A stretch of DNA of 45,428 nucleotides from an uncultured Candidatus Saccharibacteria bacterium (GTDB taxonomy: Bacteria > Patescibacteriota > Minisyncoccia > 2-02-FULL-40-12 > GWA2-44-9). Below the pieces are notes generated by a model. That model had not been told where the DNA came from. It was given only the letters and a program-made list of their open reading frames with translations, and ran no database searches. Below are positions 6,155 to 45,428 of this stretch, piece after piece. Within the stretch, counting starts at the first letter, position 1; every line of letters starts with the position of its first letter. Made by a program: the position numbers and the translations under genes. Location of the stretch: positions 1-45,428 of the forward strand of contig CAYSDF010000001.1 in the NCBI GenBank assembly GCA_964429675.1, given 5' to 3'.

Positions 6155-6167
6155 AAAGCAGGCATAA

Positions 6168-20415: not shown

Positions 20416-20530
20416 TCAGAAATTCTATCTTATTCAGGAAAAGGACATTTATTATAACGGACACGATGTCTGTATGTCCACTCAGTATATGCAGAAGGTC
20501 TTAGACGCTAAAATCGAGAAGGTAAAATAA
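20339..20530 (+). CDS. o-spanin-like outer-membrane lipoprotein (63 aa)
   Basis: MKRLKRSLSPVMLVSLMLLLTSC has a lipobox (LTS|C). The gene begins inside the i-spanin ORF and extends beyond it, the overlapped Rz/Rz1-type architecture. Confidence 0.6.
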   Translation: MKRLKRSLSPVMLVSLMLLLTSCGASQKFYLIQEKDIYYNGHDVCMSTQYMQKVLDAKIEKVK

Positions 20531-21747: not shown

Positions 21748-23266
21748 TTTCACTACACCTTCGCAGGCGATAGCGGATATCAATTTCAATGGTGGGTTAA
21801 ACACCACCTCCGGCCCTCTCTCTGTTTCCAATAACGAAAGTTCCGACTTACGCAATATCGACTTTAATAAATTCGGGTCAATTCTCAAAAGGAACGGATA
21901 TACGACTCTAAATACTTCAGCCATTACGAACTCTCCTAATTCAGATGGTCTCTACTGGTATGAGTTTGTCTCTGCCGGGGCATATGCGTCGTTTATAATC
22001 AATGTTGGAGACGGGAAACTCTGGAAGCAGGACTCTTTGGATGGGACGTGGGATGATATCACTGGGTCTTTATCTATCACCGCTGATAACTTTTGTGACT
22101 TTGAGACTTTCTTAAATGAAGTCTATATTACTAACAACACCGATGTGCCTTTTAAATGGACAGGAAGCGGGAACGGTGCGGTAATGTCGGTACCCTCCGG
22201 GCTGACAAAGGCAAAGAATGTGGTTCAGTTTAACAACTATCTTTTCTTGGGGAATGTGGTCGTCAATGCAACGACGTTTAAGTCAAGGTTTTACTGGTCT
22301 AACATTAAAGACACTTCAACATGGTTAGCAACTTCGTTTATTGAGGTCAGTAAAGACGACGGCCAGCAGATTATCCGCATGGTGGTCTTGGGAGACAGAC
22401 TGGTAGTCTTCAAAGAGCGGGCCATTTACAATGTCTTTTTTACCGGGGATAATGATATTCCTTTTATTGTCCAGAAGTCGAATTCTCCGGTGGGATGTAT
22501 TGCTCCGTTTAGTGTGCAGGAAGTCGAGAACGGATTGGTATTTCTTTCAGCGGACGGGTTCTATTATTACGACGGGAACAATTCGTATAAAATCAGTCTT
22601 AATATTCAGACAACGCTCTCAGGATACAATTCCACACGATTCAGTCAGTGTGTTTCGATGCGCCAGAAAGCTAAGAACAGGTATTTCTGTGCCATGCCTT
22701 CGAATGGACAGACGAATAATGACGTGGTGGTAGTTTGGGACTGGCAGTTGAACGCATTCAGTATTTACACCGGTATAGCGGCAGCCTCAATGGCGACCAT
22801 CTGGAATTCGGCAACTGATGAGAGAATCTATTTCGGAGATTACGCCGGGTTTGTTTATCGCATGGACACCGGGACTGACGATTACCCCTTGAATGTACAG
22901 ACCGCAATCAACGGTTATTATTATACGAACTGGAAGCATTATGATGATATCGTTGACCAAAAAGGTGTCCCTAATGTGGTGATTTATTACCAGACCTCGA
23001 ATTCCATACTGACGTTTGTTTACTCTTATGATTTCGAGAGTTCCGATACTTATAGCCAGACTTTTTCTTTAGCGACCGGGACTGCGGTGTATGGTTCGGC
23101 TATCTGGGACAGAGATGTCTATGCCGGGGCCGGAGGGCTTCAGCAGAGACGTGACTTGGACGGCAGGGGCCGGGTGGTCAGGTTCGGGTTTAAGAACAAT
23201 ACCATCGGAGAGACTTTTCAAATTGACGGGGTAGGGTATCTGCCTCACTTAGAGACCAGTGTTTAA
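21734..23266 (+). CDS. virion structural protein (510 aa, function unassigned)
   Basis: Overlaps the upstream gene. Large beta-rich protein. Confidence 0.55.
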   Translation: MAGNDFTTPSQAIADINFNGGLNTTSGPLSVSNNESSDLRNIDFNKFGSILKRNGYTTLNTSAITNSPNSDGLYWYEFVSAGAYASFIINVGDGKLWKQDSLDGTWDDITGSLSITADNFCDFETFLNEVYITNNTDVPFKWTGSGNGAVMSVPSGLTKAKNVVQFNNYLFLGNVVVNATTFKSRFYWSNIKDTSTWLATSFIEVSKDDGQQIIRMVVLGDRLVVFKERAIYNVFFTGDNDIPFIVQKSNSPVGCIAPFSVQEVENGLVFLSADGFYYYDGNNSYKISLNIQTTLSGYNSTRFSQCVSMRQKAKNRYFCAMPSNGQTNNDVVVVWDWQLNAFSIYTGIAAASMATIWNSATDERIYFGDYAGFVYRMDTGTDDYPLNVQTAINGYYYTNWKHYDDIVDQKGVPNVVIYYQTSNSILTFVYSYDFESSDTYSQTFSLATGTAVYGSAIWDRDVYAGAGGLQQRRDLDGRGRVVRFGFKNNTIGETFQIDGVGYLPHLETSV

Positions 23267-23676
23267 TGTATGTTGGAAAAAGTTCAAATTATTTCAGTAA
23301 GCATAAGTACGGAGAGAAGGAGGGGAATCAATCCGATGTCGACCGGGATTTAATCCGTATCTTTCAGGCATTATCCGGGAGATTAAGATTCGGGAGCGGT
23401 ACTAGCGGGAGTTTAGGGGAGAATCTGGGAGGTGTTTGGTTACAGGTTCTTACCTCGGGAACGACTAATACAGAGTTAGGCTATCACCACACATTAAACT
23501 CTCAACCGATGGGGTACATTGTGGTATGGCAGGATAAAGCAGGAAGTCTTTACGCCAATCCTTTTGGAAGTGGAATCAATACGACGTGGACAAGTGGAAC
23601 GGCTTATTTTAAAGCTGATGTAGGAGCGGCGAATTTTATGGTATTTTTGTTAGAGCGTGGAGGTACCAGTGGATAA
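23266..23676 (+). CDS. hypothetical virion-module protein (136 aa)
   Basis: TAATG overlap with the upstream gene. Confidence 0.5.
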   Translation: MYVGKSSNYFSKHKYGEKEGNQSDVDRDLIRIFQALSGRLRFGSGTSGSLGENLGGVWLQVLTSGTTNTELGYHHTLNSQPMGYIVVWQDKAGSLYANPFGSGINTTWTSGTAYFKADVGAANFMVFLLERGGTSG

Positions 23677-24103
23677 TATCGATAAGTATGGTCACTGTGT
23701 GGTTTGTCACAGGAATCTGATAGTAGAACGGGTGGCAGAGGGAAAAGTCATTAAAATGTTTCTCCCAGAAAAAGAAGAGACTGATTTTCTTTTAAATGAC
23801 GGGTCACGGATGAGGGTCTGTATTTGCAGGACGTGTAAGAGAGAAAAAGATTTCACTGATAAAAAACTTCAAGAGCAGATAATGGAAGCGGTGATAGCCG
23901 GATGGCAGTTGGAAGTAGATACGATGGTAGCTGACGAAAACAAACCTGAGTGGACACCTGAGCGTGCCAAGGCGCATATGGAAGTTTACGGGAAGAAAAG
24001 CCTTTTGTTACACAGTGAGAACGCTGATAAGCATGTCATTGAGAAACATCAAAGCGATGTTTTGAGGGCAATGGAAGAAGCACTGGAGCCTAAAGTAGAA
24101 TAG
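23657..24103 (+). CDS. zinc-ribbon protein (about 144-148 aa)
   Basis: CVVCHRNL and CICRTCKRE motifs. GTG start; an alternative GTG at 23669 has a better-placed GGAGG. Confidence 0.5.
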   Translation: MEVPVDNIDKYGHCVVCHRNLIVERVAEGKVIKMFLPEKEETDFLLNDGSRMRVCICRTCKREKDFTDKKLQEQIMEAVIAGWQLEVDTMVADENKPEWTPERAKAHMEVYGKKSLLLHSENADKHVIEKHQSDVLRAMEEALEPKVE

Positions 24104-24104
24104 C

Positions 24105-24716
24105 ATGCTGATTACGAAACCATATACGTTTACTGTCGGCTCTTCGATCGTCGCTTCAGAACACAATTCCAATGCTGATACGATTTACAACGATTATAAC
24201 GGAAATATCACGAATGCTAATATTTCGGGAACTGCGGCTATTTCGGACAGTAAACTTGCCCAGATAACAACATCATCGAAAGTCGCAGGGGATGCTTTGA
24301 CTCTTTTAGCGAACATCCCTTCCGGAGCTGGTATCATTCCTATAGGGAACCTCCCGGCTCTTCTTCAGGTGGCTTCAGCGACACGTAATATGACTACAGC
24401 GTCAGGGACACAGGCCATTCTTCTCTCTGGGACTTCTTTTACTCCCCGGAGCGCATTGATACTGGCGGTGGTTAACGATTCGAATCAGACCTCATGGGGG
24501 ATGGATGACGGCTCGAGGCATTTTTGTATTGCGACAGCGGGAACGGCGAGGAGTTTAGCGGATTCTAGTTTCTCTATTCGGGCGATTGCCGCTAGCGGGA
24601 CGACAGAGTATAAAGGATTGTTTAATTCTTTTAATGCCGGAGGAGGAAGTGTGACGTGGACTAAAGTAGGTTCTCCGACAGGAACACTGCAACTTTACAT
24701 AGGATTTCTAAGATGA
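24105..24716 (+). CDS. fibre- or collar-like protein, paralogue A (203 aa)
   Basis: The N-terminal ~50 aa (KPYTFTVGSSIVASEHNSNADTIYNDYNGNITNANISGTAAISDSKL) are homologous to the N-terminus of 24713..25522. Confidence 0.55.
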   Translation: MLITKPYTFTVGSSIVASEHNSNADTIYNDYNGNITNANISGTAAISDSKLAQITTSSKVAGDALTLLANIPSGAGIIPIGNLPALLQVASATRNMTTASGTQAILLSGTSFTPRSALILAVVNDSNQTSWGMDDGSRHFCIATAGTARSLADSSFSIRAIAASGTTEYKGLFNSFNAGGGSVTWTKVGSPTGTLQLYIGFLR

Positions 24717-25522
24717 GTGTCGTAGTCAAACCATCTACGTTCTCGGCGGGGGCGACCATTATCGCTGCAGAACACAATTCTAATTTCGATACATTGTACG
24801 CCGACTACAATGGGAATATTACTAATTCCAATGTGGCGGCTTCCGCAGCGATAGCTTATTCTAAACTGAATCTGGCGACCAGTATCGTCAATGCTGATGT
24901 CGCTACCAATGCAGCTATTGTAGCGTCAAAACTGGTTCTTACCTCACCGGGCCCCATCGGAAGTGTAGCTTCGAATACGGGGGCCTTTACGAGTTGTTTT
25001 ATAGCGACGTTGACTTCAGGTACCAGTAGTCAGGGAAGTATACTTTATGATAACGGAACCTCGATAGTTAAGTTGGTAGGGGGAACCGCTGGGTGGTTAC
25101 TGACTACTCAAGGGCAAGCAGCGAATCCAAATTGGACAGCTCCACTACTTTATAGTGCCGGGACGTTATCGGAAGTCAATGCTTCGACCGAAAGAACACA
25201 TAGCGGAGATACGAATCTAACGAAGATGAAAGAAATCTCTCCATTGCCACGTTCAGGAACAGTGAGTACCTCCTATGACATGAATAACGTAGCCAGTTCG
25301 AATGGACAGGCTCAATTATACATCAATGATATCGCCGTAGGGACGCTCAATACGAATTCGAGCAACACCTATGTGACGTATACTGACACCGGGATTACCG
25401 CTGTTTATGGAGATAAGTTTCAGGTATATGCAAAGACAGTGGGAGGAGATACGGTGAAGGTGAAGAATTTTAAGATATTAGTGACGAATCCTTCCCAACC
25501 ACAGGAGTTGAGCGGATTATGA
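24713..25522 (+). CDS. fibre- or collar-like protein, paralogue B (269 aa)
   Basis: N-terminus KPSTFSAGATIIAAEHNSNFDTLYADYNGNITNSNVAASAAIAYSKL. ATGA overlaps on both sides. Confidence 0.55.
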   Translation: MSVVVKPSTFSAGATIIAAEHNSNFDTLYADYNGNITNSNVAASAAIAYSKLNLATSIVNADVATNAAIVASKLVLTSPGPIGSVASNTGAFTSCFIATLTSGTSSQGSILYDNGTSIVKLVGGTAGWLLTTQGQAANPNWTAPLLYSAGTLSEVNASTERTHSGDTNLTKMKEISPLPRSGTVSTSYDMNNVASSNGQAQLYINDIAVGTLNTNSSNTYVTYTDTGITAVYGDKFQVYAKTVGGDTVKVKNFKILVTNPSQPQELSGL

Positions 25523-25887
25523 GTACCGTAGACCAATTAGTCGAGATTTACCAAAAGCAAGAAGAATGGCACACGAATAAACTCTCTCCTGAAGATTCGA
25601 GAGAATATTTTATGGAGGTCATTGACAAGGGGGAAATTATTACTTGTCTTTCAAAAGAAAAAGAAGTATTGGGATATGTGGAATTCTATCAGATAGATAC
25701 GCACTCGGGGAAGATGGGAGTTGCTTTTAACGGATGGATACATCCTGATTATAGACGAGGGTTTGTTTTTAAAGAATTGTTTAAAGAGTTTATTAAAAGA
25801 AATTCCAACTGTCTATTTTTTGCGGAACACGCTTTGAGGAAGCAGACCAAACCAATCAAGGTATTTAAAAATAGGGAGGTGATTTAA
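25519..25887 (+). CDS. hypothetical protein (122 aa), weakly GNAT-like
   Basis: GYVEFYQ...GWIHPDYRRGFVFKELFKEFIK resembles acetyltransferase motif A. This resemblance is weak. Confidence 0.4.
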   Translation: MSTVDQLVEIYQKQEEWHTNKLSPEDSREYFMEVIDKGEIITCLSKEKEVLGYVEFYQIDTHSGKMGVAFNGWIHPDYRRGFVFKELFKEFIKRNSNCLFFAEHALRKQTKPIKVFKNREVI

Positions 25888-26490
25888 GTGGGTGGTGACC
25901 GTACAAAAAATAAAACTTCGCAACAGACACAGACTCAGTATACAGCGAGTCCGGAAGAGCGACAGCTGATAAACTTTCAGCTGCAACAGGCACAGGCTTT
26001 TGACCCGATGCAAAGACAGCTCAATCAAAATGCAGGAGATTTGGTGAATAATCTTCTGCAGGGAAGGTCTCTGCCCGGCTACTTAAACAATCTCCCCGGA
26101 GGTATCGATGAGAATACTATCAGCGGGATATCGAAGCAAGCAATAGCCGATATCACGCCTCAGTTTCAGAAATCAGGAATACTGGATAGCGGGGTAGCGG
26201 CGCAGATAGCGGGCAGAACGTCAGCGGATATCCGGAATCAGGCGGCCCAGTTTAACTTACAGAATCTTCAGCAGCTATTGAATCTGGCGGTGGGAGGACA
26301 GGCACAGGTGCAGCAGCCGATACTTAATACAACTGCACAGTTGGGTGGTTCTTTGGCTGGATTAAGGACAATGAGCCAAAGCGGCAGCGGCAGCCAGACT
26401 ACGGTAGGAATGAATCCATTTTTGAAATCATTCCAAACTACACTTGGACAAACTGCTGGAAGTTTTGGACAAATATGGAAGAAAGGTTAG
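25888..26490 (+). CDS. Gln-rich protein (200 aa), possible internal virion protein
   Basis: GTG start 6-7 nt after AGGGAGGTG. Gln/Asn/Gly-rich. Confidence 0.5.
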   Translation: MGGDRTKNKTSQQTQTQYTASPEERQLINFQLQQAQAFDPMQRQLNQNAGDLVNNLLQGRSLPGYLNNLPGGIDENTISGISKQAIADITPQFQKSGILDSGVAAQIAGRTSADIRNQAAQFNLQNLQQLLNLAVGGQAQVQQPILNTTAQLGGSLAGLRTMSQSGSGSQTTVGMNPFLKSFQTTLGQTAGSFGQIWKKG

Positions 26491-26499
26491 GAGTTAAAA

Positions 26500-27342
26500 A
26501 TGCCACAATTAATGAAGAAGGATTCCTCTCCTTCGCCTAGTCAAAATTCTCAACCTGCTCAGCAGACTGACCCAATACAGGTACTTACTCAATTAGTTAG
26601 CGGGTTAGCCCAGATACAAAAGACCACATTGAATCCTTATCAGGAGGGAGTAGCTAAAGGTTTGAAGAAAGCTGGAGAACAACATGCGATTGATGCTTTG
26701 CAACAGGAGGTTCCTTCTGACCATATTGTTCAACAGGCAGGATTGAATCAGGCGGATATATTAGGACAACAGGCCGCACAGATTTCCAAGCCCACAACGA
26801 ATCCGGCAATGGCTATTCTGAAGAATATCGTAGGTCTTGGCCCTGATTTTCAGCAGTCCCAGTTAAATACTATCGGGAAAGCTCAAACGATTGCCGGACA
26901 GCAACCGATACAACCTAACGAAGTCGCTGGGATTGAGCAGACAAAAGCTCAGACAAAAGTATTAAATCAATTAATGACTGGGGAAGCACCTATCCAGCCT
27001 AAAGATATCCTCGACCTTGACAGGCAGACTTATTCAGCGATGATACAGACTTCCAATGAAGCATGGCAGAGAAATAACGAAGAGATAGCTAAGATGCAGG
27101 AACAGTATAAGACGCTCCAAGAAGGACGTTCGCAGTTTGGGAAAATGTTTGGGAATCAAACAGGTGAGATGAAAAATCTTTCGACTCTCATTATTCAAAA
27201 AATGAAACAGAATCAGACTCATATTTTGAATATGCAGAATTTACTCAATAACCCTCCTAAGCCAGCCAATAATAACAGTCCTTTTAAGGTTGGCGAACAG
27301 TATAATGGTGAGACAATTAAAAAGGTCATAAAAATTAAATAA
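26500..27342 (+). CDS. Gln-rich protein (280 aa), possible internal virion protein
   Basis: GGAG RBS. Gln-rich and low-complexity. Confidence 0.5.
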   Translation: MPQLMKKDSSPSPSQNSQPAQQTDPIQVLTQLVSGLAQIQKTTLNPYQEGVAKGLKKAGEQHAIDALQQEVPSDHIVQQAGLNQADILGQQAAQISKPTTNPAMAILKNIVGLGPDFQQSQLNTIGKAQTIAGQQPIQPNEVAGIEQTKAQTKVLNQLMTGEAPIQPKDILDLDRQTYSAMIQTSNEAWQRNNEEIAKMQEQYKTLQEGRSQFGKMFGNQTGEMKNLSTLIIQKMKQNQTHILNMQNLLNNPPKPANNNSPFKVGEQYNGETIKKVIKIK

Positions 27343-29321
27343 TGGGCACTTATCAAATCACAACCGATAAGGGAACATATCAGGTAGAAACGGATAATCC
27401 TCAGAATAATTTTGAGCAGATTAATTCTCAGGATGTCAACAATACTTTAGATAAGATGTCTCCTGAAGGACAGAATCAACCCAAAGCTCCGGCACAAAGT
27501 TTTGGTGACCAAGTGATGAATAATATTGCTCAATTCGGAAAGAGTGCGTATGAGGTAACACCTTTTGCCAAAAGGATAGCCCAGCTTACCGGGTCTAAGG
27601 CCGATGAAATATATGCACAGGTTGGAAATCCTGACGGCATACTGCAGAACATCAGTTCTCTTGCTGGGGAAATGGCTCCACAGGTGGCGATGGCTGCTCC
27701 ATTTATGAAAGGTGCTAATATTTTAATGACTGGGATGCAGTCATTGATTAAAGGTGCTGCTCCTACAGCAGCCAGAGCTATTACTGGTGGGATTGTTGGT
27801 TCTCCGATGGTGAGGGGAGCGGTGGGTTTAGGAGCGTTTTCAGGAACAAAGGCAGCACTGACTGGAGATAATCCTGTAGATGCGACTATGCAAGGAGTCA
27901 CGCAAGGGCTTATTTATGGGGCCTTAGCCAAGATGGGTGCTACATTTATCCCGAAGAGAATTCCGTTTGCCGAGAGTTTAGGTTCTGCAGTAGGTGGAGG
28001 TATTGCCGGAGCTTTAACTGCACCAAATGAAGACAAAAGAAATGCGTCAGCTGTTTTTATGGGTGCTTTGGCAGCTTTGACTCCAGAAGAAAGATTTGAT
28101 TTTCATAAGACTTTAGCCAACAATGTGAATCCTGTTCAATGGGAGAGATATCTTAGGGAAGGACTTCAAATTCCTAAAGACGATACTAAGGTTATTTTAG
28201 ATAATGGAATGCAGGAAATTGAGCGGGTAGGCACTATGCAGATACCGGTCAATAATCAATATGGTGGGCAAGATATACTTACCCCGGTACAAATTGCTCA
28301 AAAATTCTATCAAGAAGGCATTTTAAATATCAGAAAGAATATCAGTGGACAATTTGATGAAGCGATAAAAAATAACGATAATCAGAAGCCAGCGGATATT
28401 GCCGAGTTTTTAACTGGGATTAAAAAGCAGGTGGATAATTACGGAGACCCTACGTCACCCGTTGTTTCAAGGTTTAATAAAACATTGAGTGCGCTGGAGG
28501 GTTTCCAGCCGACAACGACTCAAGAAGAATTAACCGGCACAAAGGAACAAGCTAATGTAACTCCTAATTTACGTAAAGTGAGCATCACTGATTTACCAAA
28601 AAATCTTCAGGAACAGGTAAGAAAGCAGCTGGGGGCAAAAGGAGATATCACAAATTTGAATCTTAACGCTCTTCATGAGTTAAAGATGAAGATGTTTGAT
28701 GCGGTTTCGGATAAAACTTGGCGAGACCCCGGGAACACAACCCCTGAAGAAAGATTTGCTAAATCAATAGGTAAGCAGATAAGTGAGTATATTGGGAAGA
28801 ATAATGATTTGTATAAACAGGCCACGGTTGAATATGCCAAAATGAGGAAAATTCAGGCGCATATCATGGATTTAAATACCTCTGATTTGGGAAAGAATTG
28901 GAACCATCTTCAACCGGCCCAAAGAGCAGATATGCTGAATACAATCAATGGCATAGGGTCTTATTTTAAACAGAAAGGAGTTGATGAATATAATCCTAAA
29001 GGTTTACTTGAAAAGTATCATGCCTATAATTCAATCTCTAATCCTGACCCAACTTCTTTCCGAAATAATGCTCCTTTAAAAATAGCTTTTGAACGGGCAG
29101 GGACTATTATGGGTGGCATTGTGGCATTGCCATTGGGAGGAGTCCATACAGCGGCGATTGGGAGTGCGGTTGGATATTTAACAGCGGTAAAGTACATGAG
29201 ACCGAGTAGTTATATTTCAATTCTCAAAATGATAAAACCTAATTTACAAACTCCTACCTCAATGTCCTCAGGAGAAGCCTTGACTACTTTGAAAAAAATC
29301 ATCTCCTCGAAAACTCCATAG
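27342..29321 (+). CDS. large protein with glycine-zipper membrane-like segments (659 aa); internal/ejection or tape-measure-like
   Basis: TAATG overlap with the upstream gene. Gly/Ala-rich hydrophobic blocks near aa 130-230 and 590-620. Last gene of the rightward unit. Confidence 0.45.
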   Translation: MGTYQITTDKGTYQVETDNPQNNFEQINSQDVNNTLDKMSPEGQNQPKAPAQSFGDQVMNNIAQFGKSAYEVTPFAKRIAQLTGSKADEIYAQVGNPDGILQNISSLAGEMAPQVAMAAPFMKGANILMTGMQSLIKGAAPTAARAITGGIVGSPMVRGAVGLGAFSGTKAALTGDNPVDATMQGVTQGLIYGALAKMGATFIPKRIPFAESLGSAVGGGIAGALTAPNEDKRNASAVFMGALAALTPEERFDFHKTLANNVNPVQWERYLREGLQIPKDDTKVILDNGMQEIERVGTMQIPVNNQYGGQDILTPVQIAQKFYQEGILNIRKNISGQFDEAIKNNDNQKPADIAEFLTGIKKQVDNYGDPTSPVVSRFNKTLSALEGFQPTTTQEELTGTKEQANVTPNLRKVSITDLPKNLQEQVRKQLGAKGDITNLNLNALHELKMKMFDAVSDKTWRDPGNTTPEERFAKSIGKQISEYIGKNNDLYKQATVEYAKMRKIQAHIMDLNTSDLGKNWNHLQPAQRADMLNTINGIGSYFKQKGVDEYNPKGLLEKYHAYNSISNPDPTSFRNNAPLKIAFERAGTIMGGIVALPLGGVHTAAIGSAVGYLTAVKYMRPSSYISILKMIKPNLQTPTSMSSGEALTTLKKIISSKTP

Positions 29322-29374
29322 CTAGAACAATTAAGGCAATTAAAGCTAATCCTTCCATCATTTTTTTAACCTCC

Positions 29375-30271
29375 TTATTCCCAAATACCTTTTTCACCTT
29401 GACTTTTAGTTAATAAATCCTTATCCTCAAACGGCTCAAATGTATCGTTCCTTTGTTTTACGACAAACTTCATGCGTGACAGGTTAATCGGGCCCTGAGC
29501 AAGGAGTGTCTGAATCTTTTTAGGGTCATAGGTTGTCCATGATTTCTCAAGGACGCCCCTATCGTAATTATACCCCTTTGCGAATGGTCGTTGCAAGAAC
29601 TCACTTTGGTTCCGGCTTTCTCCGATTAAAAATGATTTTCCAAGATGGTCAATGTCAATATAACAATCACCCCCTCCGAAGATTTCAACCGTCCCTCCAT
29701 CCGCATAGGCTCTCATCACGATATCATTCTCGTACTGCCCGCAGACGTATCTTCGGTCAATACCACCTAATTTATCCAGATACTCTCTGCTCATCATACC
29801 TAATGGAGCCATGAGAGGGGTGTCGGGCTGAAATCCAAAAAAACAGTGATGACTCATATTGAATAACTGTCCTTCAGGGAGATTGTACCCGCTTTCTTTG
29901 GTCTGAATAGAGAGAATGAGTTTTTCGTTATTCTTTGACTTCCAGTGAGTGTAGGCTTTATCCAAGACACCGTTAGGGAATTCGCAGTCGTCAGCAACCC
30001 AGACCACAACTGCTCCGGTGCAATGCCTACGGGCGATTTCGTAACACTGAGCCGGTTTTATGTTTTCGGTTATTATGTATTTCAAAGGTTGCCCATTTTT
30101 AAATTGAAATACTATAGGGCCAAGAACTTTTTCAAAAGCATTCCCCGCAAAGACCACCTCTATTTCGCTCACATTTGACTTGAGAGAGGCGAAGAACGAT
30201 TCCCATAGCTTTGGTCTGACTGCGGAGGCAAAGAGTGAAATTTGAGGCCTTCTAGGCGTTTCTGAGGTCAT
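29375..30271 (-). CDS. GT-A-like glycosyltransferase, type I copy a (298 aa)
   Basis: ISLFASAVRPKLW, IKPAQCYEIARRHCTG and VWVADDCEF (DxD-like). Paralogue of 33143..33967. Confidence 0.6.
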   Translation of the reverse strand: MTSETPRRPQISLFASAVRPKLWESFFASLKSNVSEIEVVFAGNAFEKVLGPIVFQFKNGQPLKYIITENIKPAQCYEIARRHCTGAVVVWVADDCEFPNGVLDKAYTHWKSKNNEKLILSIQTKESGYNLPEGQLFNMSHHCFFGFQPDTPLMAPLGMMSREYLDKLGGIDRRYVCGQYENDIVMRAYADGGTVEIFGGGDCYIDIDHLGKSFLIGESRNQSEFLQRPFAKGYNYDRGVLEKSWTTYDPKKIQTLLAQGPINLSRMKFVVKQRNDTFEPFEDKDLLTKSQGEKGIWE

Positions 30272-30473
30272 TTTTATCTCCTACTGTCACATCTTGGTTC
30301 ATACTGAGGTTTTTTGGCAAAACTGATTCTAAAACCATTTTATATGTATCAAATGCTACATTGTGAATAATAAATTGGCCATTTTCTTTATGTATAATAG
30401 GCCCGACTTTACTTCTTTCGATACCATCCCATACTTCGTTAATAATTTGTGAAATCTGTGAGGCTTTAAGCAT
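30252..30473 (-). CDS. hypothetical protein (73 aa)
   Basis: Start taken at MLKASQ, which minimises overlap with the upstream GT. Lies between two GT genes. Confidence 0.4.
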   Translation of the reverse strand: MLKASQISQIINEVWDGIERSKVGPIIHKENGQFIIHNVAFDTYKMVLESVLPKNLSMNQDVTVGDKNDLRNA

Positions 30474-31254
30474 TCTGGGGCTCCTTTCCGAAGCGTCTTT
30501 CCCAACGACTCGGACATTCTTTCCAGTTATTAAGATCAAGATTGATTCTCTGCTTGCTTTTTGCGTAGCTATATATCATCTTGAAAATATACGTATCATG
30601 GTAGGTCTGGGCATTATGTATTGGCCCGTGGTCTCCGGTCGTACCGGGCATATGCCCGCACTTAAACATCATTGATTCTTGAAGGATGAACTTGACTCCC
30701 ATGTTATAGAAGCGGATAGACAAGTCATTATAAGCCATTGGACAGACCTCGAAAGACTTGGCATCCCAACCCCCAGTTTCAATTAACAACTGACGTGGAA
30801 TCAATCCTTCCATTAGCATCAAACAATCACGTGGGATGAACTCGCATCTACTGCCTTCATGAGTGTAAATATAATAATACTGAATATCAGCCATTTGCGG
30901 GTTTTCGTGGAAGTTAATCCCTTCATAGTACTTACCCACAACAACGGTTTTATAATCTTTATCCTTTAGCAACTCTTTAGCTATATCAAGTGACTTTGGC
31001 AAAAAGATACCATCATCGGCAGCCCATGTTACGTAATCTCCGGTCGCATGAGTTAAAGCGATTTGCTGGGCCCGGACAGGACTTCCCCAGTCTTCGATAA
31101 ACTTGACGTTTTCCTTTCCTTCCAGACTACGGGGCGGTGGATAGGGGCCGCAGAAGATTATTTCCCATGTTCCGCTAAAAGATTCTGCCACTGAGTCATA
31201 AAGCTGTTTCCAGTTGCCCGGGCGAATCCCGGGGACTAAGACTGATAATTCCAC
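30466..31254 (-). CDS. GT-A-like glycosyltransferase, type II copy a (262 aa)
   Basis: GTG start after AGGAGGTG (TAGTG overlap). LSVLVPGIRPGNW, TWAADDG, C-terminal NWKECPSRWERRFG. Paralogue of 32391..33143. Confidence 0.6.
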   Translation of the reverse strand: MELSVLVPGIRPGNWKQLYDSVAESFSGTWEIIFCGPYPPPRSLEGKENVKFIEDWGSPVRAQQIALTHATGDYVTWAADDGIFLPKSLDIAKELLKDKDYKTVVVGKYYEGINFHENPQMADIQYYYIYTHEGSRCEFIPRDCLMLMEGLIPRQLLIETGGWDAKSFEVCPMAYNDLSIRFYNMGVKFILQESMMFKCGHMPGTTGDHGPIHNAQTYHDTYIFKMIYSYAKSKQRINLDLNNWKECPSRWERRFGKEPQNA

Positions 31255-32412
31255 TAATCACCTCCTATGATTTCAAAATGCGGTAAAGGGAAGACCAATT
31301 TACCTCCCTGTTTAAGAAACTTTTTTTCTCGTTTGATAATGTGTTCCTTGAAATGCCACGGAAGAACAAAGAAATAGTCTGGTTCCATGGAACGGGCTAT
31401 TTCTTCAGAGACGATAAGAATATTTGTCCCCGGAGTATAACAGCCCCACTTTTCTTTATTCACATCTGCGATAAGAGGCAGTTCTTTTCTGGTTAATCCG
31501 CAGTATTGCAGAAGTACATTGCCTTTTGTGGAAGCACCATAACCCAAAACTAGCAATTTATTTAAGCTGGCCTCTAGTGTAAAAAACCGCCAGATATCTT
31601 GCCGATGCTGTTTAATTTGTGTTTCAAATTTTTTGAAAGGTGACACGGAAACTTCCTCCATTGATTTCGTTATAGTTGATATCGATAATTTTCAGTTCAG
31701 CGGCTTCGGCAATGAATTCCATCTGCGGTATATCGTAGTAGCATTTATGTTCGTGACAGATGGTATCGTAGGAATTATTTTCCAACATTCTAGGAAGATA
31801 GCTTTGTTCGGTAACCCAGATACCGCCTTTTCCCAGCATATCTTGTATTCGATAAGCTAAGGTAAATGGGCTATCCACATCATAGAACATCGCAATCGAA
31901 GTGATAACTTTAACTTGTTTCGTAAGAATCCTGTCAAGATAGAGAGAAGGGAAAAAATCGTTGACGAAGATAATTTCTTCTCCATAAAAAGAACTGAATT
32001 TAGAGATTGGGTCAATACCTATCTTGGTGCAGGGAGTTTTGTAGGATTTTAAAAGTGTAGCATCGTTGCTGCCGATATCTAGAACGATATCATCTTTGTT
32101 TAGTTTCACCCGTTTCTTGATTTCTGCGACAATCCCTTCGATATGTTTGACCATAGAGGCATTGAGATTTGATTGGTATCCGTAATGGTCTCCCCAGAGA
32201 ATATCTGAGGTGACGCTATGTCTTAATTGAACCAACTCACACTTTTTACACTGAACCAATTCCAGCGGTGCTTTGAGTAATTTCTTATCCGGCTTCTTTG
32301 GGAAATATCCAGTGAGTGCCATTTCGCCTAAATTTAAAACAGGTTTAAGTTTTGAACTACAGCACAGACGACAACGAAAGATTTCTCGAATCAACCGAAT
32401 CTCCTTGCCCAT
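31254..32412 (-). pseudogene. NDP-hexose C-methyltransferase (TylC3-like), split into two ORFs (31624..32412 and 31254..31661) at an A6 run
   Basis: N-terminal part has FRCRLCCSSKL..LNLGEMALTGYF (zinc ribbon), DIGSNDATLL, IGIDP, ICHEH and NGGSFRV. C-terminal part has LGYGASTKGNVLL, DVN..K.G.Y.PG and PDYFFVLPWHF. The frames join if A6 (31629..31634) is read as A5. Confidence 0.75.
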
Positions 32413-33143
32413 TTTTCTGGCGATTTTTTCCAGTTATCGAGAGGGATTTTAATTCTGTCCTCGCAGCTTGGTTGGTTATAGATTTTTTTGTAAATCTCCA
32501 TATCCACAAAGAATCCATCGTGAATAGGTTTATGGTCGCCACTCTCTCCGGGCATCCACTCACACTTCAAAACAACTTCGTCGCTCAAGATAGTCTTTGC
32601 TCCCCAGAATTGAAGTCGTATTCCCAAATCCAGTTCTCCGACAGCGATGGTCTCAAACTGGCAGTCCCAGCCCCCGATATCGTTAAGCAATTTAGTGGGA
32701 TAAATTCCAAAATTAATCAGCTTGAAGTTATGCGGGATGTAGTGGGCGTGGGTCTGGTTATGATAGCGGAGATTGTAGAAATTAGGGTCGTTCATATTCT
32801 GAAAAGCCTGATGACTCTGGTTGATAGAAGAGTTCCATTCGATGAATTTTAAGTTGACGACGGTATCTTCTTTGGCGAGCGCCATCGCTCTATCCATAGC
32901 TCCGGGAAGATAGGTTGCATCATCAACGGCCCGGTGGATATACTCTCCTCTGGCCTCAATAAGCCCTAACTGCTGGCAGCGAATAGGTGTCCCGTAATCT
33001 TTAATGAGTTTCCCTACGTCCATAAACGCAATACTCGGAGAGATGGTGATTAATTCCATTTCACCGGTGTAGCTTTTTTTAAAAGAATCGTAAAAGTTCT
33101 TTAAGTATCCGGGGCGAATCGTTGGTAAGATAACTGAGAGCAT
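32391..33143 (-). CDS. GT-A-like glycosyltransferase, type II copy b (250 aa)
   Basis: MLSVILPTIRPGYL, RAVDDATY, C-terminal NWKKSPEKWARRFG. The ATG overlaps the upstream stop (TAATG); an alternative GTG lies at 33152. Confidence 0.6.
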   Translation of the reverse strand: MLSVILPTIRPGYLKNFYDSFKKSYTGEMELITISPSIAFMDVGKLIKDYGTPIRCQQLGLIEARGEYIHRAVDDATYLPGAMDRAMALAKEDTVVNLKFIEWNSSINQSHQAFQNMNDPNFYNLRYHNQTHAHYIPHNFKLINFGIYPTKLLNDIGGWDCQFETIAVGELDLGIRLQFWGAKTILSDEVVLKCEWMPGESGDHKPIHDGFFVDMEIYKKIYNQPSCEDRIKIPLDNWKKSPEKWARRFG

Positions 33144-33967
33144 TATTCCCACCTATCTCTAATTGACTGGCTTGTTTCGGTGATGTTCTCGTCCTCGAAC
33201 GGTTCGAACTTATCTCTTCTCTGGAGAGTGACTTCTCGGTTACTGATTGGGTAATAGACATTCAAAGTCCCTTGATGATTCAGAACGTATATCCCCCGCT
33301 CGAAGTCTTTATACCCTTCGATGACCCAAGAGTTTTCACAGATTTCACTGTCTTGATTGACCCCAGACCAGTCGTTGGTATATTCCCCGGATTTGTGGGT
33401 GTGGTCGATTTTTATTTCTACTTCTTCAAACTTGATGACTTTGCCTCCCGCTGCTAGAAGTCTCATACAGATATCGTACTCCCACTTTCCGTAAAGATAT
33501 CTTCTGTCAATCCCGTGCATTTTCTCAAGAGTAAATCGATTCATAAATCCGATTTGAGCCATCTGCGGAGTATTGAGGTTACGGGCAAAGAATCGATGGT
33601 CGTTTAAATCGTTATTCTTACACTGAGGGTCAAGGGTCTTTATGGCAAGGATAGTAGTATCGTTTTGTTTTGTGGCAAATTCGTATATTTTATCTAGAGC
33701 ATTTGGCGGAAACTCACAGTCATCGCTTATCCAACCGATAATATCCCCAGTACACTTTCTTCTGGCAATCTCATAACACTGAGCCGGTTTGATGTTCTTA
33801 GTCTGGATATATTTTAGCATTGGATACTTTTCGAGAATCTCCTGAATGACCACTGGTTCAATGTACCCAGAGAATACGACTTCATAGGGAATCGTATTTA
33901 ATTTAAGTGAATCGAGTAACCTTTCCCATAAGAACGGACGGACTGCACTGGCAAACAGACTTATCAT
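33143..33967 (-). CDS. GT-A-like glycosyltransferase, type I copy b (274 aa)
   Basis: MISLFASAVRPFLW, IKPAQCYEIARRKCTG and WISDDCEF. ATGA overlap with the SDR gene, with AAGGAG upstream. Confidence 0.6.
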   Translation of the reverse strand: MISLFASAVRPFLWERLLDSLKLNTIPYEVVFSGYIEPVVIQEILEKYPMLKYIQTKNIKPAQCYEIARRKCTGDIIGWISDDCEFPPNALDKIYEFATKQNDTTILAIKTLDPQCKNNDLNDHRFFARNLNTPQMAQIGFMNRFTLEKMHGIDRRYLYGKWEYDICMRLLAAGGKVIKFEEVEIKIDHTHKSGEYTNDWSGVNQDSEICENSWVIEGYKDFERGIYVLNHQGTLNVYYPISNREVTLQRRDKFEPFEDENITETSQSIRDRWE

Positions 33968-34917
33968 TTTAACTCCTTTCGGTAGGTATCTAAAAGCCAT
34001 TGAACGCTTTCTTCAATGGTATATTTAGGCTTCCATTCTGAAATGGTATCGAATTTCGTCGTATCGGGGACTTGGCGGGTGACATCGACCGGTCTTAAAA
34101 GAGTGGTATCTTGAGTGGAAATAATGGGGACTTTGGCAAATGATTTTATTAGTTCAAGGAATTCTCCGACTTCCATAATGGTTGCTCCCCCGATGTTGTA
34201 GTTTTCTCCGATGACACATCTTTCGCAAGCAACCCAGTAAGCCGCCATAGCATCACGAACATCGATGATGTTACGAATAGAATTAAGATTTCCGTGTTTG
34301 AGGACTCCCCCCTGTCTTTCGATTTGGACAATCTGCCAAGCGAACGCCGAAGCGAATAAATCACGGCGGCGAGGGTTAATATAAGCAAACATCCTTGTAG
34401 TAATAACACGTAGGCCCCAACTTTGATGATACGCATAAGCTAAACTCTCCTGTGCTAATTTACTCACGCTATAAGGGTTGACCGGCTTCAAAGGATGCTC
34501 TTCGGTTATTGGAAGAATCACCGGATTACCATAGACCTCTGAGGTGGAACACATCTGGACGAGGGTCTCCGGACAGACCATTCGAATAGCTTCGAGAAGA
34601 TTCGCTGTTCCGATGATGTTGTTGTTGATGACGGCTAAAGGTGTCTCAAAGCATTTCTTGACGTTAGCAAAAGAAGCCAAATGAAAGATTCTATCGGGTA
34701 CAATGATTTTCAAGGCCCGTATCACTGAAGATAAATCAAGTAAGTCCGCTTCTAAGATATGGACTTTATCTTTGACCGCCTCGATGTTCGCCAGCGTGCC
34801 CGCACTGTGCCACCGGTGAAGTCCCCAGACCTCGTAGTCGAGATGGTTCTCAAGAATGTATTCGGCCAAGTAACTTCCGCCTGACCCCGTGATTCCGGTG
34901 ATGAGACATTTTTTCAT
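33964..34917 (-). CDS. NAD(P)-dependent NDP-sugar 4,6-dehydratase/epimerase (extended SDR, GDP-mannose-4,6-dehydratase-like)
   Basis: LITGITGSGGSYLAEYILE (Rossmann GxxGxxG), STSEVYG and the YSVSK (YxxxK) catalytic motif. 317 aa. Confidence 0.8.
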   Translation of the reverse strand: MKKCLITGITGSGGSYLAEYILENHLDYEVWGLHRWHSAGTLANIEAVKDKVHILEADLLDLSSVIRALKIIVPDRIFHLASFANVKKCFETPLAVINNNIIGTANLLEAIRMVCPETLVQMCSTSEVYGNPVILPITEEHPLKPVNPYSVSKLAQESLAYAYHQSWGLRVITTRMFAYINPRRRDLFASAFAWQIVQIERQGGVLKHGNLNSIRNIIDVRDAMAAYWVACERCVIGENYNIGGATIMEVGEFLELIKSFAKVPIISTQDTTLLRPVDVTRQVPDTTKFDTISEWKPKYTIEESVQWLLDTYRKELK

Positions 34918-35282
34918 TATTTCTCCTTTGTTTCGTGATATTGTAAAAAAAATGGAGTGTAGGTCATTCGAGAAAATCCTAAATCATCAGTGGTGCCGTG
35001 CCACTGTACAAGGGCGGTAGGATTAAAGGAACGCTTTTTCTTCTTCTGGTACCATCTTCGGTCAGCGGCATTTTTTTTATCTTTATTCTCTTTACGCCAA
35101 TTTCGGTTATAGGCGAGCTTCTTTTTATATCTCCGTTCTTCCCGGATTTTCTGGTCTTCTTTGTGGCAGAGGATACAGTAACTAGCCATCATTGGAGTCC
35201 GGTTCCCTAGTCTGCGGAGTTTAAGTCTGGTATATTTAGGATATTCGGTTGTTCCGCACTTAGAGCAGGGACGACGAACCAT
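34917..35282 (-). CDS. basic zinc-ribbon protein (121 aa)
   Basis: CSKCG...CILCH followed by a Lys/Arg-rich tract. TAATG overlap with the SDR gene. Confidence 0.5.
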   Translation of the reverse strand: MVRRPCSKCGTTEYPKYTRLKLRRLGNRTPMMASYCILCHKEDQKIREERRYKKKLAYNRNWRKENKDKKNAADRRWYQKKKKRSFNPTALVQWHGTTDDLGFSRMTYTPFFLQYHETKEK

Positions 35283-35889
35283 ACTTTATCTTTCTTAAAT
35301 CTTTTTCAAATTGAAGGCCTATCCACATGGCAAAAGCTGAACCGTCTTTTTTAAATTGTTCTCTGGAATTTGTTTTTTGATACACAGCATCAGCGAGAGA
35401 GTTATCAGTTATCATTGTATCGTAGTTAGTGAATGGTTGTTTAATAAAATGTTTGTGTTCGATAATCACATTCTTGAAGTAATGCAATTTTCCCAAGTTA
35501 TCACCGATACACATCCAAACGTTATCCCCGTAAAGAAAGTCTACCGCCGGAAGCTGCAACCATCCTAAAGCTCTCGGTAAATCCCCATTAATTACGGAAA
35601 TTGTGCATAATCCTTTTTTTAGGAATCCATCGTTGGCATAGGCTATGCCGTCACTTTTAAGAGTTTCATCCCATCCTTTTGTATGGTAAATGAAATCATC
35701 ATTGGCGATGTGGTACCATCCGTAGTCCGGATTTTCCCGGAAGACCTTATTGATGATTTCCGTGGTCGTTCCGGGAGTGGTATCTACGATTAAATCCGAA
35801 CAAGTCTGGGTTTCTTCCCAGCTTTTCTTCATTTCTTCTAGACGTTTCGGGCGAATAGAAGGACAAATGGTTAAGACTCTATCTTTCAA
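35260..35889 (-). CDS. GT-A-like glycosyltransferase, type III (209 aa)
   Basis: LTICPSIRPKRL and HIANDDF share the N-terminal x-P-S-I-R-P and DD motifs with the other six GT-like ORFs. Confidence 0.5.
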   Translation of the reverse strand: MKDRVLTICPSIRPKRLEEMKKSWEETQTCSDLIVDTTPGTTTEIINKVFRENPDYGWYHIANDDFIYHTKGWDETLKSDGIAYANDGFLKKGLCTISVINGDLPRALGWLQLPAVDFLYGDNVWMCIGDNLGKLHYFKNVIIEHKHFIKQPFTNYDTMITDNSLADAVYQKTNSREQFKKDGSAFAMWIGLQFEKDLRKIKYGSSSLL

Positions 35890-36469
35890 ATTTTCTCCGC
35901 ATAAAAAATAGACCAGTTCCTAACAACGCTATAGTAGCCGGTTCCGGGTTATGTCCTACATATTTAAAATCCGATAAGTTGCCGATGGCTTGATGTTCTC
36001 CTCTTTCATAGGCCAACCAATAATTCCCAGCTGGTAACGTAACCCACATACTGGTGGATGGAAAATCATCTTGATAGGTAATTAAGTCAGGCGTGATTGG
36101 AAAAGACACATTAGCTTTAGTTATCTCTTCGTTCGCCTTTGGCAATTCATCTCCTGAGTAGACAAAGAAATTGAAATCAAATAAATCTTCAGACTGGTTG
36201 TCAGAAAAGGCCTCAACATCGACAAGTACCCTATCAATAAAAATAGGCTCCTCAGCCAAAAATTGTTTAGCGAATCCTATCGTACCATTCCCCGTGGGGC
36301 CGTTCACATACCCAGTCCAATCTGAATAATGCCATGTCCCGCCTTCTACTCCGCTATTTAACCACGGGTTTTCGTAGATTGCGTCTACACCTGTAAAATT
36401 AAATGGTACTATCATTGCTTGTGCTTCTGTACAAAACAATAAAACCAGAATTATAATTAAGTATTTCAT
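35879..36469 (-). CDS. secreted PEP-CTERM domain protein (196 aa)
   Basis: Signal peptide MKYLIIILVLLFCTEAQA. C-terminus NPEPATIALLGTGLFFMRRKFER shows the PEP motif, a hydrophobic helix and a basic tail. Confidence 0.8.
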   Translation of the reverse strand: MKYLIIILVLLFCTEAQAMIVPFNFTGVDAIYENPWLNSGVEGGTWHYSDWTGYVNGPTGNGTIGFAKQFLAEEPIFIDRVLVDVEAFSDNQSEDLFDFNFFVYSGDELPKANEEITKANVSFPITPDLITYQDDFPSTSMWVTLPAGNYWLAYERGEHQAIGNLSDFKYVGHNPEPATIALLGTGLFFMRRKFER

Positions 36470-36627
36470 TTTACTCCTCTTTCTGGTCGTTTTATCCCCT
36501 CAATACATGGTTTAGTTTTCCCTGAATCATCAAACTTATCCGTGAAGACGTACATTGGGAGGTTCTCGCAGAGTCTGAAGGTTGCTAACATTATCATAAT
36601 GAATAATTCGATTTTTAGAATTTTCAT
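36466..36627 (-). CDS. small protein with a hydrophobic N-terminus (53 aa, below cutoff)
   Basis: Hand translation gives MKILKIELFIMIMLATFRLCENLPMYVFTDKFDDSGKTKPCIEGIKRPERGVK. GGAGAAG RBS. ATGA overlaps on both sides. Confidence 0.4.
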   Translation of the reverse strand: MKILKIELFIMIMLATFRLCENLPMYVFTDKFDDSGKTKPCIEGIKRPERGVK

Positions 36628-45090: not shown

Positions 45091-45428
45091 TCCGCCCAAA
45101 GAAAATCAATCAGTCATTACAGACCAGCCTTTAAAGAATCCGATCAAAAAACCTCGCCGGCTCTCCTTGCGCCAAGAAAGATTCGCCCAAGAATATATTA
45201 AGAACAATGGTGACGCCACAAAGGCAGCAGAAATAGTTTATGCCCGGCCAAAGAATAACTCCAATAGGGCAATAGCAAGTGAAAACTTAACAAAGCCAGC
45301 CATTGTTAATCGTATATCTCAAATACTCAATGATAAGGGGTTAGACCTAGATAGTTTAAGCCTAGATTTAAGGGATAAGAAGAATAATGCATGTAGACCA
45401 GTGGTAGTAGGTAAGCAAATAATAGACT
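45083..45428 (+). CDS. terS: terminase small subunit, 5' portion (continues at 1..264)
   Basis: ATG at 45083 overlaps the upstream stop. The ORF is open to the window end. See the feature at 1..264. Confidence 0.75.
   Translation, partial: MTNPPKENQSVITDQPLKNPIKKPRRLSLRQERFAQEYIKNNGDATKAAEIVYARPKNNSNRAIASENLTKPAIVNRISQILNDKGLDLDSLSLDLRDKKNNACRPVVVGKQIID
45374..45428. repeat. 55-bp terminal overlap identical to 1..55 (circular-contig closure)
   Basis: Both ends read GATAAGAAGAATAATGCATGTAGACCAGTGGTAGTAGGTAAGCAAATAATAGACT. Confidence 0.95.

Follow-up and report, generated by a model that had tools for sequence, protein, structure and literature searches.

Sets of several glycosyltransferases (GTs) are already known in phages and giant viruses. 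The serotype-converting Gtr proteins are membrane proteins of lysogenic enterobacterial phages; the chlorovirus PBCV-1 has its capsid glycosylated by A64R and other GTs, encodes a GDP-mannose dehydratase of its own and carries O-methylated rhamnose; and the T4-like cyanomyoviruses have genomes of about 200 kb or more. The large cyanomyoviruses S-SCSM2R and P-SSM2, with more than 300 open reading frames (ORFs), possess cell-wall/lipopolysaccharide (LPS) clusters with up to 13 GTs (PMC12801897), and in mycobacteriophages the capsid and tail proteins are glycosylated by GTs that the phages themselves encode (PMC12363180). In Coxiella burnetii, a GDP-sugar route to virenose has been proposed in silico, involving a 4,6-dehydratase of GDP-mannose (GMD, CBU_0689), the TylCIII-like methyltransferase CBU_0691 and an epimerase/reductase, and bifunctional GMDs are cited in the same work (PMC3539893). 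Here we describe a gene island at positions 29375-36469 of contig CAYSDF010000001.1 (assembly GCA_964429675.1; the whole stretch analysed, 45,428 nucleotides, is referred to as the window). The island is very probably a phage-borne glycan-assembly cassette, as it encodes five predicted GT-A glycosyltransferases (GT1, GT1', GT2, GT2' and GT3), an extended short-chain dehydrogenase/reductase (SDR) and a sugar C-methyltransferase divided between two ORFs (MT_N and MT_C), and begins with a gene for a PEP-CTERM secreted protein. The full reading that we favor, in which this cassette includes a pathway to a C-methylated sugar and acts on the phage's own virion proteins, is given a probability of about 0.45.

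The island resembles each of these systems in part. As in the mycobacteriophages Che8, Corndog and Myrna (Freeman et al. 2023, as summarised in PMC12363180), the phage has soluble GTs of its own, a likely cytoplasmic acceptor, and a GT number that varies among related phages. It differs from them in the addition of the SDR and the C-methyltransferase, in a GT1 unmatched in deposited phages (the Che8 gp110 and Corndog gp38 GTs included), in a host that is presumably Gram-negative and equipped with an exosortase, and in that no Ser/Thr-rich tails were seen and virion glycosylation is here a prediction from the genes. With PBCV-1 the island shares several GT-A transferases, an SDR of GDP-mannose 4,6-dehydratase type and sugar methylation, and GT3 matches A64R structurally; PBCV-1 is, however, a eukaryotic giant virus whose sugar is O-methylated rather than C-methylated, and the likeness between GT3 and A64R is one of fold only, at 8-9% identity. 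In the Coxiella pathway, too, a GDP-sugar 4,6-dehydratase and a 3-C-methyltransferase of the TylC3 type together give a 3-C-methyl-6-deoxyhexose of a surface glycan, but it is a chromosomal bacterial pathway with a one-polypeptide methyltransferase and a separate reductase/epimerase. TcaB9, MtmC and TylC3 are also single polypeptides of about 400-420 aa, whereas the enzyme described here is encoded by two overlapping ORFs, has a deleted linker and has a partner that is likely GDP-specific. The cyanomyoviruses are similar in holding many GT genes together with NDP-sugar epimerases/dehydratases in one phage genome, yet their genomes are far larger and their GT families are different, in contrast to a hypervariable locus at a fixed position that fills 15.6% of 45 kb. 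The Gtr proteins, too, are phage-borne GTs altering a surface glycan, whereas the enzymes of the island are soluble and no integrase was found.

Against this background, nothing in the island is categorically new. New are the GT families without a characterised or isolate-phage homologue (the search of isolates having been carried out with GT1), the reshuffled cassette at a fixed position in an uncultivated lineage, the pairing of a GDP-type SDR with a C-methyltransferase, the conserved split of the latter, and the phage-borne PEP-CTERM gene.

Setting and enzymes of the island

The window is a phage genome, encoding a large terminase, a major head protein, tail proteins, a DnaB-like helicase, NinG, a Cas4-like exonuclease and a Lar-like protein. 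It carries an exact 55-bp direct repeat at its ends (1-55 and 45374-45428), from which we take the genome to be complete and circularly assembled, at about 45.37 kb. The island occupies 7.1 kb of 45.4 kb (15.6%) as one overlapping string of minus-strand genes at the far end of the leftward early/replication operon, and its GC content of 0.41-0.45 resembles that of the remaining window. An independent Logan assembly of SRR8931233 is 100% identical to window 20315-33336 (about 13 kb), a span that takes in both the 29.3-kb junction between the virion module and GT1 and the frame change of the methyltransferase. The terminal repeat, the identical junction and the same position of the cassette in related phages indicate that the island is phage DNA and not a misjoined piece of host DNA, as the initial annotation of this sequence had proposed. 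Its other structural claims were also borne out: the share of the genome, given as about 15%, agrees with the measured value; all ten ORFs that it named lie on the minus strand at the coordinates stated; the gene overlaps are ATGA at SDR/GT1', TAATG at zinc-ribbon/SDR and at GT1'/GT2', and TAGTG at MT_C/GT2; and the mirrored order I'-II'-MT-II-I of the two GT types around the methyltransferase is present. The genes are listed below in the order of transcription, followed by two GT-like genes outside the island.

35879-36469, minus strand: PEP-CTERM secreted protein, 196 aa (TIGR02595, signal peptide)
35260-35889, minus strand: GT3, predicted soluble GT-A glycosyltransferase, 209 aa (phrog_14945, AlphaFold2/Foldseek)
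34917-35282, minus strand: basic zinc-ribbon protein, 121 aa (PHROG matches)
33964-34917, minus strand: extended SDR, placed in the GDP-sugar 4,6-dehydratase/4-reductase clade, 317 aa (Pfam, PDB sequence matches)
33143-34000, minus strand: GT1', divergent GT1 paralogue, predicted GT-A, 285 aa (Pfam); likely start ATG 33967, in ATGA with the SDR stop codon
32391-33152, minus strand: GT2', GT2 paralogue, 253 aa (paralogy); likely start ATG 33143, in TAATG
31624-32412, minus strand: MT_N, N-terminal two-thirds of a sugar C-methyltransferase, 262 aa (Methyltransf_13, Methyltransf_23)
31254-31661, minus strand: MT_C, C-terminal domain of the same methyltransferase, 135 aa (Methyltransf_14); likely start GTG 31646
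30466-31254, minus strand: GT2, core GT-A glycosyltransferase (predicted), 262 aa (Pfam); GTG start in the TAGTG overlap with MT_C
30252-30473, minus strand: small ORF between GT2 and GT1, 73 aa (gene call in the Logan assembly); maximal ORF 95 aa, to 30539
29375-30271, minus strand: GT1, core GT-A glycosyltransferase (predicted), last enzyme gene of the operon, 298 aa (AlphaFold2/Foldseek)
29299-29397, minus strand: possible small hydrophobic peptide, 20-32 aa, directly after GT1 (sequence only)
8284-8958, plus strand: GT-A-like protein of the head module, outside the island, 224 aa (weak PHROG match)
11369-12040, plus strand: GT-A-like protein of the virion module, 223 aa (Pfam Anp1 below gathering score)

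The presence of five GT-A transferases was supported by AlphaFold models and Foldseek for GT1 and GT3, and by Pfam and paralogy for GT1', GT2 and GT2'. The AlphaFold2 model of GT1 (predicted local distance difference test, pLDDT, 90.1) matched the WrtF fucosyltransferase (7e-10), ppGalNAc-transferases, RmlT, TarS and SpsA, the matches other than RmlT ranging from 7e-10 to 3e-8. The model of GT3 (pLDDT 92.5) matched beta4GalT7 (1e-5), WrtF, TarP and PBCV-1 A64R, with a TM-score of up to 0.82 against viral GT-A proteins. GT3 also matches phrog_14945, annotated as glycosyltransferase, at 1e-21; as it shows no sequence similarity to the four other GTs of the island (hidden Markov model E 0.02-0.5), its putative membership of the GT-A class derives solely from the predicted structure. 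Against a Pfam gathering score of 23.3 for Glycos_transf_2, GT1' (31.3 bits) and GT2 (24.9 bits) scored higher and GT1 (16.8 bits) lower, and no Pfam match was obtained for GT2' or GT3. A DD motif stands at the expected place in all five enzymes: D94-D95 is invariant across the GT1 family and N63-D64-D65 across the GT3 family, and the corresponding motifs are AADDGIF in GT2 and AVDDATY in GT2'. No transmembrane segment was predicted in any enzyme of the island. The two GT pairs are paralogous far beyond chance, as had been supposed, with identities of 43% between GT1 and GT1' (E 2e-66) and 37% between GT2 and GT2' (E 1e-56); GT1 and GT2 are themselves 26% identical (E 2e-12).

Two further GTs had been assigned to the virion module. 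We located them at 8284-8958 and 11369-12040, and found them to be paralogous (36% identical, E 2e-44), both having the motif LLLDDDHxGHTxEMLE, although profile support for a GT function is weak. The former, which is conserved in a related contig (L022, see below), gave a weak PHROG glycosyltransferase match (7e-4), and the latter gave matches to Pfam Anp1 (5e-6, below the gathering score) and to the STIV A197 glycosyltransferase 2c0n (3e-3). We regard both as candidate GT-A enzymes, which would raise the total of the genome to seven. About 0.4 kb downstream of 11369-12040, past a small ORF (12048-12536), a virion-module gene (12437-13384, plus strand) encodes a protein with a ConA-like lectin/glucanase domain (Laminin_G_3, 7e-23), which may be a sugar-binding virion protein.

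Searches among described phages returned little. In blastn comparisons of the island and 25 kb of the genome with 50,697 phage records, no match was obtained, and the same was true of GT1, the only GT searched in this way, in a tblastn comparison with these records. With any deposited phage, the major capsid protein (6168-7118) shares no more than about 25% identity, so that no host can be transferred from deposited phages. Pfam searches of the remaining early genes and the large virion genes gave no match, no integrase was found among the ORFs of at least 300 aa of the genome, no repressor, lysogeny genes or tRNA genes were found in the genome, and a promoter/terminator scan yielded nothing informative.

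The divided C-methyltransferase and the SDR

The initial annotation described one gene for a TylC3-like C-methyltransferase. The family assignment stands, on Pfam and on the matches to MtmC and TcaB9, but the single gene does not, since two ORFs that overlap in different frames together encode the enzyme. MT_N comprises a four-cysteine zinc domain and an S-adenosylmethionine (SAM)-binding domain (Methyltransf_13, 5e-14; Methyltransf_23, 4e-8), aligns to residues 8-261 of MtmC, and ends at a TGA stop codon at 31626-31624. MT_C lies in the +1 frame relative to MT_N, overlaps it at 31624-31661, and matches Methyltransf_14 at 1e-37 over profile positions 40-160. When the two were joined in silico, the product matched MtmC (5e-47) and TcaB9 (1e-28) in the PDB and was about 48% identical to full-length bacterial enzymes of 409-412 aa, and all three Pfam domains and the four zinc cysteines are kept across the two ORFs. 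The C-terminal domain of TcaB9 binds the NDP-sugar, and the split falls at the boundary between the SAM-binding and C-terminal domains of that enzyme.

We found the same arrangement in a phage contig from a different sample (L016), whose GT1, MT_N and MT_C are 61%, 51% and 53% identical, respectively, to those of the window. Its methyltransferase is likewise divided between two ORFs (250 and 133 aa), which stand to each other in the frame relation seen in the window, and the split site (L016 12023-12072) lacks a homopolymer. In both phages a linker of about 28 residues, which in full-length enzymes connects the motifs NGGSFxVTxxK and P[YF]xxFE, is deleted, the two frames of the overlap region encode the two flanks of the deleted linker, and both halves retain the residues that are invariant in full-length enzymes. 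The 40 other methyltransferase homologues in IMG/VR are single ORFs of 396-449 aa or lie within larger fusions, and the best-scoring bacterial homologues are also single ORFs. In L061-L063, fusion proteins of 1130 aa (3004-6396) contain the whole C-methyltransferase. A metagenome scan with the methyltransferase alignment employed patterns that were too generic, and returned three irrelevant loci.

These data suggest that the methyltransferase is probably a conserved split enzyme made from two translationally coupled genes. A GGAGGA sequence (31659-31654) stands 7-8 nt before an in-frame GTG (31646), which was also chosen as the start by the Logan gene caller, and L016 has GGTGG at the equal distance from a GTG. 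An improbable explanation is recoding, either by +1 frameshifting stimulated by the stop codon or by transcriptional slippage. Two genes are preferred over it on three grounds: no slippery site is shared by the two phages; in each of them, read in the +1 frame, the invariant Phe that opens the C-terminal domain is found upstream of the point where MT_N stops; and GGAGGA/GGTGG stands at the distance given above from the GTG. That the enzyme is an inactive relic seems still less probable. A sequencing error at the run of six A residues (31634-31629) was ruled out, as L016 is split without a homopolymer and the Logan sequence is identical.

The SDR had been described as 4,6-dehydratase-like, and Pfam together with PDB sequence matches upheld this. 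It matches Pfam GDP_Man_Dehyd at 1e-61, and its best PDB matches are the GDP-D-glycero-D-manno-heptose 4,6-dehydratase 7us5 (1e-51), the GDP-4-keto-6-deoxymannose reductase Rmd 2pk3 (1e-44) and E. coli GMD (8e-32). The motifs TGITGSGG (GxxGxxG), STSE and YSVSK (YxxxK) align with those of 7us5, 2pk3 and 1db3. All of the NCBIfam equivalog cutoffs were missed, with 145 bits for LegB (cutoff 475), 131 for RmlB (365) and 123 for gmd (415), and the SDR is therefore placed at the level of a clade only, its sequence pointing to that of the GDP-mannose/heptose 4,6-dehydratases and reductases. The corresponding SDRs of related phages are 58-72% identical, and those of L014 and L015 30%.

The earlier proposal that a dehydratase feeds the C-methyltransferase was thus retained in part. 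Its logic is sound, and the methyltransferase gene neighbors that of the SDR in L016 as well as in some 14 other viral contigs; the SDR clade is, however, of the GDP type, whereas the characterised TylC3-type enzymes that match best in the PDB are named for mycarose- or tetronitrose-type sugars, which are dTDP-linked.

The cassette in related phages and the PEP-CTERM gene

GT1 has 458 metagenomic homologues (E <= 1e-5), many of them on phage-sized contigs of 37-45 kb. The loci compared were drawn from IMG/VR, NCBI metagenomes and ENA, as well as from phage-sized contigs that had been binned into metagenome-assembled genomes (MAGs) of Omnitrophota, Nealsonbacteria and Eubacteriales. Their core is a GT3-GT1 pair, GT3 being always accompanied by GT1, and it is usually followed by the SDR and GT2, located at the end of the early operon beside the end of the virion module, and this core occupies the same genomic position in L001, L009, L012 and L016-L018. 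The gene content varies around it: GT3-GT1 stands alone in L002 and L003, GT3-GT1-SDR-GT2 is found in L001, L009, L017 and L018, the order is GT3-GT1-MT_N-MT_C-SDR-GT2'-GT2 in L016, and the P0007 contigs have two SDRs and several unassigned ORFs of about 260-280 aa. Of all the sampled cassettes, that of the window has the most genes. A single-sequence scan of IMG/VR with GT2 returned nothing.

Two ideas of the initial annotation were unsupported or overstated in the light of this comparison. The first was that the mirrored order of the GT pairs came from a duplication. GT1 and GT2 are orthologues of core genes elsewhere, with identities of 54-66% and 46-57% to related phages, respectively; GT2' has a 50% identical orthologue in L016 (13354-14160), where the order is different; and no sampled homologue exceeds 43% identity to GT1'. 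This identity pattern rules out a recent duplication of the GT pair in situ. Since GT1, GT2 and GT2' have orthologues of their own in relatives, the duplications are old, and the mirrored order is one of several arrangements. The second was the novelty of the island, which is not singular in view of the 458 GT1 homologues, the core cassette in relatives, and the cyanophages described with 13 GTs (PMC12801897). The island is an expanded form of a modular cassette typical of an uncultivated phage lineage whose genomes measure about 37-45 kb.

L022 shows a clear relationship to the window in its terminase, portal and capsid; its GT1 homologue (9986-10858) lies between the terminase and portal genes rather than at the early operon's end, and unassigned ORFs of 261 and 205 aa come after it. 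A 711-aa protein of L025 (11433-13568) has a GT3-like domain and is encoded beside GT1. The GT1-bearing contigs L019 (45 kb) and L021 (36 kb) were binned into Omnitrophota and Nealsonbacteria MAGs, which may reflect mis-binning or give a hint of the hosts or environment of the wider family.

The PEP-CTERM protein, whose gene opens the string, carries a signal peptide at its N-terminus, ends in PEPATIALLGTGLFFMRRKFER, and shows the C-terminal PEP motif, hydrophobic helix and basic cluster. It scored 18.2 bits with TIGR02595 (cutoff 16) and 20.4 bits with the Pfam model, marginally below the gathering score of 20.7. In an exhaustive search of 1.8 billion representatives, 39 homologues were obtained at E <= 0.001, for which a cluster look-up gave no names. 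Six of these, of about 200 aa, were examined, and all had a signal peptide and five had the PEP-CTERM motif end, the closest one (P0288) ending in a PELD variant. The protein as annotated is thus genuine, but its membership of the cassette is not supported, the gene being absent from all 32 related loci that bear GT1. The closest homologue is encoded at the end of the early operon of a phage-like 49.5-kb contig (L033, Logan SRR12927082) that has no GT cassette; genes for a Cpn60/GroEL-type chaperonin and a Laminin_G_3 protein are located on it as well. From the absence in related loci and the nearest homologue without a cassette, we take the gene to be an independent accessory that heads the string. 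The window itself encodes no exosortase; the PEP-CTERM sequence implies that the host bears one, which would narrow the host to exosortase-bearing bacteria. In the literature searched, no work linking PEP-CTERM proteins with phage genomes was found. Directly upstream of the gene, and joined to it by an ATGA overlap, lies a 53-aa ORF with a hydrophobic N-terminus (36466-36627, minus strand).

Proposed pathway and acceptor of the glycan

From these genes we infer substrates, an order of steps and an acceptor as follows. The SDR would convert a host GDP-sugar to a GDP-4-keto-6-deoxy sugar, which the two-polypeptide methyltransferase, with the zinc and SAM domains in MT_N and the C-terminal domain in MT_C, would methylate at C-3, a reaction made possible in the TylC3 family by the 4-keto group. 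Reduction of the keto group would come next, catalysed by a reductase of the host or by the same SDR, were it bifunctional. The five soluble GT-A enzymes of the DxD type would build a short oligosaccharide containing the branched deoxy sugar. GT3 and GT1, which are present in nearly every related cassette sampled and are for this reason assigned to the base layer, would probably lay this base from ordinary host sugar nucleotides, and GT2, GT2' and GT1' would extend it. The phage's own virion proteins would be glycosylated in the cytoplasm before assembly, giving the particles a variable glycan coat.

The choice of virion proteins as the acceptor is tentative, and we put it at a little less than an even chance. 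It is favored because the enzymes are soluble, because no priming transferase, flippase, polymerase or ligase was found, so that the means of lipid-carrier priming, flipping, polymerisation and ligation are missing, because no lysogeny genes were found, and because the virion module holds two GT-A-like paralogues and L022 has its GT1 in the head module; the mycobacteriophages provide a precedent. Several points weigh against the favored reading. Ser/Thr-rich C-terminal tails are the acceptor in mycobacteriophages, and a crude composition scan detected none in the virion proteins. The cassette sits in the early/replication operon, not in a late operon. GT1 has no sequence homologue in isolated phages (50,697 records), and thus no activity can be transferred from experiment. 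For the SDR, the top matches are of both kinds, and by its sequence it may be a dehydratase, a reductase or both. The best-matching TylC3-type enzymes presumably act on dTDP-sugars and not on GDP-sugars. Finally, soluble enzymes of the GT-A type are also active, at the inner face of the membrane, on lipid-linked intermediates of the host.

The strongest alternative, possible but doubtful, is one in which the GTs and the modified sugar nucleotide act on undecaprenyl-linked intermediates of host O-antigen, capsule or exopolysaccharide (EPS). Such remodelling of the host surface could block superinfection, prevent the loss of progeny on debris, or change flocs or biofilm, and the PEP-CTERM protein could belong to the same program as a likely substrate of the host exosortase/EPS system. 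The PEP-CTERM gene does stand at the head of the string, and PEP-CTERM proteins were reportedly linked to EPS loci in Haft's original description of the family. The location of the cassette within the early operon is also in accordance with this explanation, which is, moreover, the usual reading of cyanophage GT/sugar-nucleotide clusters (PMC12801897), and C-methylated 6-deoxyhexoses such as virenose occur in LPS (PMC3539893). However, the PEP-CTERM gene is missing from all related cassettes and its nearest homologue belongs to a cassette-less phage. With no integrase or repressor found, there would be no lysogenic state, in which seroconversion normally pays off; Gtr, Wzx, Wzy or ligase-type membrane proteins are lacking, and the two GT-A paralogues lie within the virion module.

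We consider it very unlikely that the glycan is made for phage-encoded or host PEP-CTERM proteins, to give a glycosylated surface protein sorted by the exosortase. The PEP-CTERM gene adjoins GT3 with an overlap of 11 nt, suggesting translational coupling, but its product is exported through a signal peptide while the GTs are cytoplasmic, no oligosaccharyltransferase is present, and dozens of relatives have the cassette without the gene.

Glycosylation of the phage DNA, with sugars placed on hydroxymethylated bases to evade restriction, is highly improbable. GT3 matches phrog_2675, annotated as DNA methyltransferase, and a 596-aa Actinoplanes phage protein, a Lar-like restriction-alleviation gene is located nearby, and 11369-12040 weakly matches a beta-glucosyl-HMC glucosyltransferase PHROG. 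This explanation was rejected, since no dNMP hydroxymethylase or thymidylate-synthase-like gene was found in the genome, where there is also no unassigned ORF of fitting size; to our knowledge, moreover, five GTs with C-methylation of a deoxy sugar far exceed any known sugar modification of DNA. Equally hard to credit is an assembly artefact or decaying cargo, that is, a misjoined host fragment with a methyltransferase split by error or as a pseudogene: the frame change does lie beside the A6 run, but the genome-like GC, the 55-bp terminal repeat, the Logan identity over 20315-33336 and the conserved position of the cassette oppose it, and L016 shares the split, the +1 frame and the linker deletion without a homopolymer, both halves keeping their invariant residues.

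A more elaborate form of the favored reading, in which virion proteins are glycosylated, may be put forward as a speculation that we consider rather unlikely as a whole. The cassette would be a rapidly reshuffled glycotype locus at a fixed position, a phage counterpart of the bacterial O-antigen locus, specifying for a widespread lineage of uncultivated phages a variable capsid/tail oligosaccharide with a GDP-derived 3-C-methyl-6-deoxyhexose made by a naturally split, two-subunit TylC3/TcaB9 enzyme, and a PEP-CTERM protein exported to the host surface. If virions are the target, phage self-glycosylation, which has been demonstrated experimentally mainly in mycobacteriophages, would extend to an abundant environmental lineage beyond the actinobacteriophages. 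The number of GTs, ranging from two to five or more among close relatives, suggests diversifying selection on the particle surface, and such surface variation bears on phage-host recognition, on particle stability, and on recognition by immune systems or grazers. With the split methyltransferase, nature has set up an experiment on how sugar C-methyltransferases are built from their domains, which could aid the engineering of these enzymes.

The zinc-ribbon protein (pI 10.2) has no Pfam match, and matches PHROG endonuclease VII and HNH families at 1e-4 to 7e-5; the likeness is to the N-terminal part of phage nucleases of the endonuclease VII/HNH type, and a nuclease domain is lacking. Because a homologue (L007 3952-4230, E 2e-22) is located inside another cassette, between GT1 and the SDR, we regard it as a recurrent passenger of the cassette. 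No Pfam or PHROGs match was obtained for the 73-aa ORF (30252-30473). The hydrophobic ORF directly after GT1 (29299-29397, minus strand) reads MMEGLALIALIVLAMEFSRR from an ATG, is preceded by an AAGGAGG Shine-Dalgarno motif, and extends into the 3' end of the convergent gene for a 659-aa virion protein.

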